From assembly GCA_902500055.1 (NCBI GenBank), contig GCA_902500055.1_4131.1: a stretch of DNA of 64,000 nucleotides; one strand, written 5' to 3'. This DNA comes from Escherichia coli (GTDB taxonomy: Bacteria; Pseudomonadota; Gammaproteobacteria; Enterobacterales; Enterobacteriaceae). Below the pieces are notes generated by a model. That model saw only the letters and a program-made list of their open reading frames with translations. It ran no database searches and was not told where the DNA came from. Position numbers and translations under genes: made by a program. Below are positions 19,969 to 20,455 of the stretch, piece after piece. Every line of letters begins with the position of its first letter. The stretch's first letter is position 1.

Positions 19969-20133
19969 TTATCGGTGCACGATATGCATCAGTACTTCTT
20001 CGTCGAGTTCAGTACTTAAGAATGATTTGTACATGCACTTAACACGTATAACATCCCACATTCTCTGATCCAACGGTAGATAATAAGGATTCCACTTTAG
20101 TTTCTGGAGTTTCATCCACTCTTCATGTGTCAT
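19969..20133 (-). CDS. MTHEEW small protein, subfamily A
   Basis: 54 aa MTHEEWMKLQKLKWNPYY...; below the ORF-track length cut-off; found by translating the repeated ccattcttcatgNgtcat start element. Confidence 0.5.
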   Translation of the reverse strand: MTHEEWMKLQKLKWNPYYLPLDQRMWDVIRVKCMYKSFLSTELDEEVLMHIVHR

Positions 20134-20294
20134 ATTCGTACCATTAGTTCAATTAAGTACTTTTTATATTCTGGGTCGTTGATAAGTTTATCATACAGAT
20201 GCAACTTTGAAATGAATTCCCAATGATACTTTAGCCATTTACCAATACCTGCATATCTAAAATTAATATCATTCATCCATTCTTCATGCGTCAT
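20130..20294 (-). CDS. MTHEEW small protein, subfamily A
   Basis: 54 aa MTHEEWMNDINFRYAGIGKWLKYHWEF...MVRI; stop overlaps next start in ATGA. Confidence 0.5.
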   Translation of the reverse strand: MTHEEWMNDINFRYAGIGKWLKYHWEFISKLHLYDKLINDPEYKKYLIELMVRI

Positions 20295-20455
20295 ATTCGT
20301 ACCATTATTTCAATAAAGAACCACGGATACACTTCATGATTTATAAGTTTATCGTATTCTGCTGGGTCTGATATAATCTCCCAATGATATTTTCGCCAAT
20401 TACCTATGCCGGAGTATCTGAACTTTAGTTCACTTAACCATTCTTCATGGGTCAT
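20291..20455 (-). CDS. MTHEEW small protein, subfamily A
   Basis: 54 aa MTHEEWLSELKFRYSGIGNWRKYHWEI...MVRI; ATGA overlap with next gene. Confidence 0.5.
   Translation of the reverse strand: MTHEEWLSELKFRYSGIGNWRKYHWEIISDPAEYDKLINHEVYPWFFIEIMVRI

Follow-up and report, generated by a model that had tools for sequence, protein, structure and literature searches.

Three tandem 54-codon genes of an Asteriusvirus-type jumbo coliphage belong to a tRNA-linked family of conserved small protein genes

Are three very short open reading frames (ORFs), overlapping head to tail in a stretch of DNA deposited as Escherichia coli, real genes, and if so, what could their products do? The stretch in question (64,000 nucleotides of contig GCA_902500055.1_4131.1, hereafter the window) carries them on its minus strand between positions 19969 and 20455. 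An initial annotation, made from the sequence alone, had described three consecutive minus-strand ORFs of 54 amino acids (aa), each starting MTHEEW, and strand reading together with an ORF listing confirmed this description. Our results show that all three are genuine genes, protein-coding and kept by purifying selection. Moreover, they are what remains of a family whose members, in uncultured relatives, stand in arrays of ~20-26 genes beside the tRNA genes, and this wider family picture is more useful than the three-gene finding itself.

In the order of transcription, copy A occupies positions 20455..20291, copy B 20294..20130 and copy C, the most divergent of the trio, 20133..19969. The protein of copy A (MTHEEWLSELKFRYSGIGNWRKYHWEIISDPAEYDKLINHEVYPWFFIEIMVRI) begins MTHEEWLSELKF and ends MVRI, that of copy B (MTHEEWMNDINFRYAGIGKWLKYHWEFISKLHLYDKLINDPEYKKYLIELMVRI) begins MTHEEWMNDINF and also ends MVRI, and that of copy C (MTHEEWMKLQKLKWNPYYLPLDQRMWDVIRVKCMYKSFLSTELDEEVLMHIVHR) begins MTHEEWMKLQKL and ends IVHR. 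The MVRI ending had been assigned to the latter two genes, which holds along plus-strand coordinates but not in transcription order, where A and B come first. Each stop was also said to overlap the next start, and the minus strand indeed reads ATGA in the four bases 20291-20294 (A/B) and 20130-20133 (B/C). Copy C ends in TAA, and no cistron is coupled 3' of it. The proteins of A and B are 61% identical (E=2e-21, tblastn) and those of C and A 25-32%, depending on the alignment; the resemblance within the trio is far beyond chance. At the DNA level A and B share 70% identity and C only ~30-39%, and TRF reported no tandem repeat; consequently the similarity of the three copies is one of proteins, and it is old. 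Between A and B, identity at codon positions 1, 2 and 3 is 0.76, 0.82 and 0.53, respectively.

Two lines of evidence support that the ORFs are maintained as genes. The initial annotation had argued for real genes from conservation across the copies, and related phages do contain homologs with clearly conserved reading frames: frame and 54-codon length are kept in nine related genomes, with the sole exception of copy C in CMSTMSU, a record flagged 'unverified', where the ORF breaks off after 11 codons. The ratio of nonsynonymous to synonymous substitution rates (dN/dS, Nei-Gojobori), taken for the window genes against their orthologs, is 0.09-0.17 for A (8 orthologs), 0.19-0.35 for B and 0.13-0.27 for C. 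Among the copies themselves a ratio below 1 had been proposed as a check, and A versus B gives 0.11 with a dS of ~2.2. The synonymous excess is significant (Fisher p 1e-6 to 0.02). The second line comes from the 5' ends. Among 23 distinct 5' ends of members starting MTH, Thr2 is encoded by ACA, ACG, ACC or ACT and His3 by CAT or CAC. Since synonymous codons vary inside an invariant motif, the motif must be selected as protein and not as an RNA or DNA signal, and we therefore rejected the conserved 5' end as a nucleotide-level signal.

One could object that the ORFs are non-functional by-products of a DNA or RNA repeat, such as tRNA-processing spacers, homing endonuclease targets or recently amplified junk, insofar as they are short, lack a known domain and adjoin HNH homing endonuclease genes and tRNA genes. 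Such by-products would not be expected to show dN/dS far under 1 with divergence at third positions, to vary synonymously within an invariant motif without any tandem repeat in the DNA, or to keep their frames across phages whose member proteins are only 20-40% identical. This explanation is effectively refuted, with hardly any probability left to it, and we are close to certain that the trio consists of real, expressed protein genes.

As sequences the three genes are already known, both in GenBank and in PHROG 10970. By megablast the window belongs with the Asteriusvirus jumbo coliphages (121Q, PBECO4, phAPEC6, TH47), most relatives being 88-94% identical here. Copies A, B and C correspond to gp125, gp126 and gp127 of 121Q, all annotated 'hypothetical protein'; the orthologs in phAPEC6 (gp094c-096c, gp096c being copy A) and Ecwhy_1 (gp36-38) have the same position and order as in the window, and three copies are annotated also in Turkey3, fEgEco12 and Ecwhy_1. 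The exact window proteins stand in NCBI as 'Uncharacterised protein [Escherichia coli]' (VVZ35307.1 for copy A, VVZ35290.1 and VVZ35272.1), on contigs of at most 353,697 bp. The genes had been described as missed by the ORF track. They were concealed from the first reading by a 60-aa ORF cut-off, the default of the ORF tool, under which all three fall, but publicly they had been annotated already as 'hypothetical' or 'uncharacterised'. All three match PHROG 10970, whose function is unknown (A, E=1.8e-26; B, E=6.5e-22; C, E=1.4e-25), and the matches run end to end, residues 1-54 against profile positions 1-56. Sequence searches with the family proteins in Pfam, NCBIfam, PADLOC (which holds defence proteins) and the PDB gave no informative match, and fold searches of the PDB found no informative relative.

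The trio is paralogous, as had been claimed, but the count of three fell short, as the window holds seven members in total. Paralog D (21708..21529, 59 aa, MTHKEW...) was found by tblastn, in the ORF list and with a family hidden Markov model (HMM; E=1e-16), and paralogs E (22227..22051, 58 aa) and F (22485..22306, 59 aa), both MTHEEW..., by tblastn and in the ORF list. Paralog G (22667..22482, 61 aa, the equivalent of 121Q gp114) represents a divergent sub-type, MQPKTFDEW...DDFGTYFSIAV, and its stop overlaps the start of F as ATGA (22482-22485). All four lie on the minus strand within 2.2 kb of the trio, and when the family HMM was applied to all stop-to-stop segments of 35 aa or longer across the window, it returned exactly these seven members and nothing else.

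Two tRNA genes and one HNH endonuclease gene, likewise on the minus strand, are interspersed among the seven members. tRNA-Gly(tcc) (21952..22023, ARAGORN) lies between E and D. tRNA-Arg(tct) (21046..21119, ARAGORN and Rfam) stands directly upstream of the endonuclease gene (20490..21014; NUMOD4, PF07463, and HNH_3, PF13392), which separates it from copy A and is absent at that position in 121Q, JP4 and UE-S1; this tRNA is probably co-transcribed with the trio. Apart from HNH endonucleases, the neighbouring genes all belong to PHROGs of unknown function, and among these neighbours and the tRNAs we found neither a toxin gene nor homology to an immunity family near the members in the window.

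Outside the window the family is rare. A profile search of ~5.8 billion proteins yielded only 25 clusters, and an exhaustive HMMER search of 1.84 billion representatives yielded 22 small proteins of 43-64 aa along with three spurious long matches; nearly all 22 carry MTHxxW at the N-terminus or at most 10 residues from it (P0032 has MSH). Of 50,697 cultured-phage records, only those of Escherichia and Salmonella jumbo phages contain the family, the scan of IMG/VR viral contigs returned 121Q only, and a degenerate DNA pattern for two adjacent MTHxxW starts gave only 2 genuine cases among the at least 120 loci listed. No members occur outside the Asteriusvirus-type jumbo phages of E. coli and Salmonella and a few relatives that are uncultured.

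It is in these uncultured relatives that the family is largest. In four lineages a single contiguous array comprises 13 to 26 diversified members: ~20 in L010 and L011 (SRR30815946 and SRR15674957), 26 in L012 (ERR4503900, a 78-kb contig), 25 in L135-L137 (SRR3402338x, a 108-kb contig) and at least 13 in L138 (ERZ14189038), whereas Asteriusvirus genomes hold 4-7 members interleaved with tRNA genes. Neighbouring array genes are separated by -8 to +3 nt at 62 of 68 junctions. Most array members have MT[HKY]xEW at the start and a hydrophobic C-terminus, ...IA(V/L)xx, and profile-profile comparison ties the core family to the G type over its full length (93% probability, E=3e-7) and to an MTxExY type (78% probability, E=2e-5). 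The order of sub-types appears conserved between distant arrays, from which the arrays appear to be ancient and individually maintained rather than products of recent amplification. A tRNA cluster (Leu, Gly, Ser, Arg or Met, Asn) of the same orientation closes the array in each lineage, and the family always lies on the strand of that cluster, directly upstream of it or interleaved with it. We found no paper containing 'MTHEEW', the Asteriusvirus genome papers do not discuss the family, and the literature searched does not describe the unification of the sub-types, the packed arrays of 20-26 genes or the constant position at the tRNA cluster.

Between close relatives the trio numbers two or three copies, and the number changes by clean 161-bp units. 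B is lost in PBECO4 and UE-S1, and A in JP4 and the metagenomic contig L029, with identical flanks; D, E and F are also gained and lost among relatives. An obvious substrate for unequal recombination is offered by ~18 identical nucleotides (TAATGGTACGAATATGAC) that the A/B and B/C junctions have in common. The window's copy A is itself unusually divergent: its dS against orthologs is 0.43-0.72, where B and C give 0.2-0.3. Over the first 13 residues (MTHEEWLSELKFR) its protein is nearer to the E-type paralog of 121Q (MTHEEWLDELKFK) than to other A copies (MTHEEWMNDINFR), and in most relatives the first 18 residues of A and B are identical, a pattern that suggests gene conversion between paralogs. 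A further trace of history may lie upstream of E, where ~35 nt (22228..22265) closely resemble the 3' end (21709..21745) of a 71-aa gene (21925..21710) that precedes D. The ancestral duplication unit seems to have been this 71-aa gene together with an MTHEEW gene, the copy upstream of E having since degraded.

How the genes might be expressed can be read in part from their surroundings. Near-consensus promoter sites (at least 11 of 12 matches to TTGACA-N16-18-TATAAT) number 29 on the minus, coding strand of the window against 1 on the plus strand, ten of the window's sites being perfect 12/12 matches, and almost all ORFs of at least 110 aa lie on the minus strand. The related loci show a similar asymmetry (7-10 sites on the coding strand, 0-2 on the other). 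Such strand-biased, near-consensus sigma-70 sites point to a region read by host RNA polymerase, i.e. early genes, and the window looks like one long region of this kind. For tRNA-Arg, the HNH gene and copies A-C, the nearest plausible promoter is a sigma-70-type candidate before tRNA-Arg (21129..21156, minus strand; GGGACA-16-TATAAT, 10/12, with an upstream TG), called from its match to the consensus. Just past the stop of copy C, a near-consensus candidate conserved in relatives (19929..19956, minus strand; TTGACT-16-TATAAT, 11/12) heads the next unit, beginning with a 117-aa gene (19897..19544), and marks the downstream boundary of the trio. The large arrays are preceded by a conserved candidate promoter, TTGACA-18-TACAAT. 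In 121Q, JP4 and UE-S1, which lack the HNH insertion, a tRNA ends ~24-26 nt before copy A, suggesting tRNA-mRNA co-transcripts.

On the minus strand 5 nt before the ATG of copy A stands a Shine-Dalgarno-like AAGGGA (20461..20466), which has no equivalent at B or C; these have no good Shine-Dalgarno sequence (upstream sequence ...AATGGTACGAAT), just the ATGA overlap. A ribosome-binding site at A only, followed by ATGA overlaps, fits termination-reinitiation, and we infer that B and C are translationally coupled to A. According to our hypothesis the genes would be transcribed early by host RNA polymerase, on polycistronic RNAs that also carry tRNAs; ribosomes would load at the Shine-Dalgarno sequence of copy A, and translation of B and C would follow, coupled, by re-initiation at the respective ATGA overlap.

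Between the TTGACA-18-TACAAT promoter and the first gene of the large arrays lies an ORF-free leader of ~300 nt (L135 9337..9665, L012 4839..5166, L010 5675..6000), which is ~95% identical among the three lineages, far above the conservation of the array proteins, and has no match in Rfam. Its second half has homologs at ~16230..16404 of the window (minus strand) and at ~11673..11836 of L013, from 121Q. RNAalifold predicts two modules: one of ~100 nt with a closing 10-bp stem followed by five T and an internal hairpin with 3-4 compensatory pairs, and one with a long-range stem of ~20 bp. The first module also occurs directly before tRNA-Leu in L138, and the modules are candidate stable small RNAs of the tRNA island. 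The palindrome CAGTACTG, which forms the core of long stems in this leader RNA, occurs 25 times in the window against 0.8 expected (30-fold; no shuffle gave more than 4). Occurrences are dense at 13.6-22.8 kb (examples from the window are 318-325, 16247-16254, 16368-16375, 18684-18691, 19456-19463 and 19526-19533). Four promoter-like sites have it as their spacer, immediately before the -10 element, TTGAC(T/A)...CAGTACTG(A)TATAAT, and the promoter beside copy C has a form with one mismatch, GAGTACTG. The palindrome may be an operator or an element of a promoter class.

The proteins themselves are small, ~6.5 kDa, and mostly acidic or neutral (pI 4.7-6.8; D, 9.3), with at most one Cys and negative GRAVY values. 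They are rich in aromatic residues (13-21% against a background of 11%) and in Trp (3-7%, although G has 1.6%, against 0.95%). Across 28 aligned core-family sequences M1, T2, H3, W6 and R53 never vary, and E5 hardly does. AlphaFold2 models of A (mean pLDDT 71, 28 sequences) and F (79, 38 sequences) have a common topology of four short helices at about residues 3-14, 22-30, 31-40 and 44-53. We rejected a secreted or membrane protein, given the hydrophilic composition and the absence of a hydrophobic segment, and set aside an ATCUN-like X-X-His metal site formed by Met-Thr-His, which removal of Met before Thr would destroy.

We hypothesized that the family members are diversified small binding proteins serving host takeover or counter-defence. 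This is the explanation we lean towards, tentatively, at a level of belief somewhat short of even. According to it the proteins would act as binding modules, in which a conserved aromatic helical core, the invariant N-terminal M-T-H-x-x-W and the C-terminal Arg would carry variable surfaces, and each protein would bind a host factor during takeover, most plausibly a component of host defence, and neutralise or redirect it. Several results should temper this hypothesis. The low dN/dS values and the apparent conservation of sub-type order indicate long-term conservation of each paralog, which fits less well with a fast arms race. The linkage to tRNA genes could be inherited synteny without functional meaning. 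The promoter calls consist of consensus matches only, and matches at the 10/12 level occur at the chance rate in the AT-rich DNA of the window (27 found, 26.7 expected). The profile-profile link between the core family and the MNKSDIS type is weak (23% probability), a common origin of the two being likely from co-location and equal size. Finally, a search of the literature found no transcriptome, ribosome-profiling or intracellular proteome data for this genus. If the members instead bound tRNAs, aminoacyl-tRNA synthetases or ribosomes, or inhibited host anticodon nucleases, tRNAs and small proteins would together make up a single functional island. Phage tRNAs counter defences that target tRNA, and the family lies upstream of, or interleaved with, a same-strand tRNA cluster in all five lineages examined, despite protein identities of only 20-40%; the short distance from a tRNA to copy A in 121Q, JP4 and UE-S1 likewise implies co-transcription. 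The proteins have, on the other hand, no recognisable RNA-binding or nuclease-inhibitor fold, the acidic or neutral character of most members disfavours direct binding of RNA, and synteny alone can account for the linkage, which leaves a role directed at tRNA or translation rather unlikely.

The tight junctions of the long arrays, the apparently conserved order of sub-types and the purifying selection on each paralog would also be expected if the members were subunits of one hetero-oligomeric phage structure or complex, with coupling fixing the proportions of many small subunits. Yet A or B, and likewise D, E or F, are lost from close relatives with no compensating change, ~25 members shrink to 4-7 in Asteriusvirus, and no member was detected in phAPEC6 virions, so that we regard a common complex as quite unlikely. 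A further alternative takes the invariant N-terminus as its starting point. T4 internal proteins are polymorphic and share a conserved N-terminal targeting sequence. By analogy, the members could be packaged, injected internal proteins with MTHEEW as a capsid-targeting peptide, in keeping with a small protein that diverges elsewhere while its N-terminal amino acids do not vary. The virions of phAPEC6 do contain an inner body (PMC7247149). Mass spectrometry of these virions identified 62 proteins, and none of the six orthologs (gp094c-096c and gp099c-101c) was among them, even though a protein of 4.66 kDa was detected (PMC7247149); the small size of the family proteins makes their absence weak negative evidence. 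No consistent protease-cleavage motif follows the N-terminal MTHxxW (the next residues are LSE in A, MND in B and MKL in C), the N-terminal helix is modelled within the folded domain, and the genes lie in a region of early-type, not late, promoters. A T4-like capsid-targeting peptide is disfavoured by the virion proteome and the lacking cleavage motif, and we consider packaged internal proteins improbable.

The preferred explanation, diversified binders of host factors, can be sharpened into a more specific and speculative one. The MTHxxW genes would be what erosion has left of an ancestral ~25-gene array for diversified four-helix mini-proteins, expressed on one early polycistronic transcript that also carries the phage tRNAs and one or two structured, conserved leader RNAs, and serving as a modular counter-defence arsenal. 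In one version each paralog would neutralise a different host effector, providing poly-immunity against host nucleases that target tRNA or translation. We give this explanation a small chance, and if true, the arsenal would constitute a previously undescribed class of phage anti-defence island.

A 60-aa ORF cut-off conceals real, selected genes, which in this case were already publicly annotated, so that the three-gene finding by itself matters little. A lineage-specific superfamily of ~55-aa proteins can fill 4-5 kb of uninterrupted, packed mini-genes (up to 26) beside the tRNA cluster of jumbo phages. If the members are diversified binders of host factors, they would offer a compact, experimentally tractable library of small inhibitors, as well as a handle on why the tRNA islands of jumbo phages are so organised.

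Further features of the window's tRNA island were noted along the way. The island holds two homing-type endonucleases, the gene at 20490..21014 and a free-standing HNH endonuclease ORF (17398..18102, minus strand, 234 aa, phrog_14913) situated between an intron-bearing tRNA-Met upstream and tRNA-Asn downstream. The tRNA-Met(CAT) gene (18426..18120, minus strand) is split right after the anticodon by a 230-nt group I intron (18388..18159; Rfam RF00028, 99 bits over 18167..18481). Exon 1 spans 18426..18389 and exon 2 18158..~18122; the last intron base is the G at 18159. Spliced in silico, the tRNA is canonical according to ARAGORN, which had not called the gene in the unspliced window sequence. 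Phage TH47 and the metagenomic contig L029 carry the intron with 100% identity; 121Q has a different, uninterrupted tRNA-Met there. Interspersed with the MTHEEW genes and tRNAs is a candidate second paralog family of 117-182 aa (18696..19085, 19544..19897, 22657..23061, 23058..23606 and 23815..24207, all minus strand). Its members share a C-terminal acidic EEE(E/D/Y)F(Q/M) followed by a hydrophobic helix, noted by eye, and are possibly kin; each is its own PHROG of unknown function, and a homolog precedes the array in L010 (5301..5678).

How, then, does the family compare with known systems? To PHROG 10970 (121Q gp125-127, PBECO4 AGC35066/35067, phAPEC6 gp094c-096c) the trio belongs directly, as syntenic orthologs; the window genes differ from it in nothing of kind and are merely further alleles. 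The entry carries no function, and no link to the divergent sub-types, the 20-26-gene arrays or the association with tRNA genes. In architecture the arrays of the four uncultured lineages resemble the tandem poly-immunity loci of polymorphic toxin systems, in which diversified head-to-tail paralogs of one small scaffold presumably each bind a different partner. The likeness is one of architecture only, since the phage family has no adjacent toxin gene and no match to a Pfam immunity family, and resides in virulent phages rather than in a bacterial chromosome.

Copy-number change of tandem paralogs through unequal recombination is familiar from the 'genomic accordions' of large DNA viruses (poxvirus K3L, the MGF genes of ASFV), and the clean 161-bp units of the trio are comparable. 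The copies here, however, are ancient (dS above 2 between A and B, no DNA repeat) and individually conserved, and not near-identical products of recent amplification. A further comparison is with the T-even phages, whose polymorphic small early and internal-protein loci (hyperplastic regions) are likewise small, lineage-specific clusters of variable content in large virulent phages. The tRNA region of T4 combines small ORFs, stable RNAs and a homing endonuclease, as does the neighbourhood of the window family, and T4 internal proteins carry a conserved N-terminal peptide on a divergent body, as the window family does. The family differs from these loci insofar as it shares no sequence or fold kinship with them, was not detected in virions, lacks a cleavage motif and is conserved over its full length, including the C-terminus.

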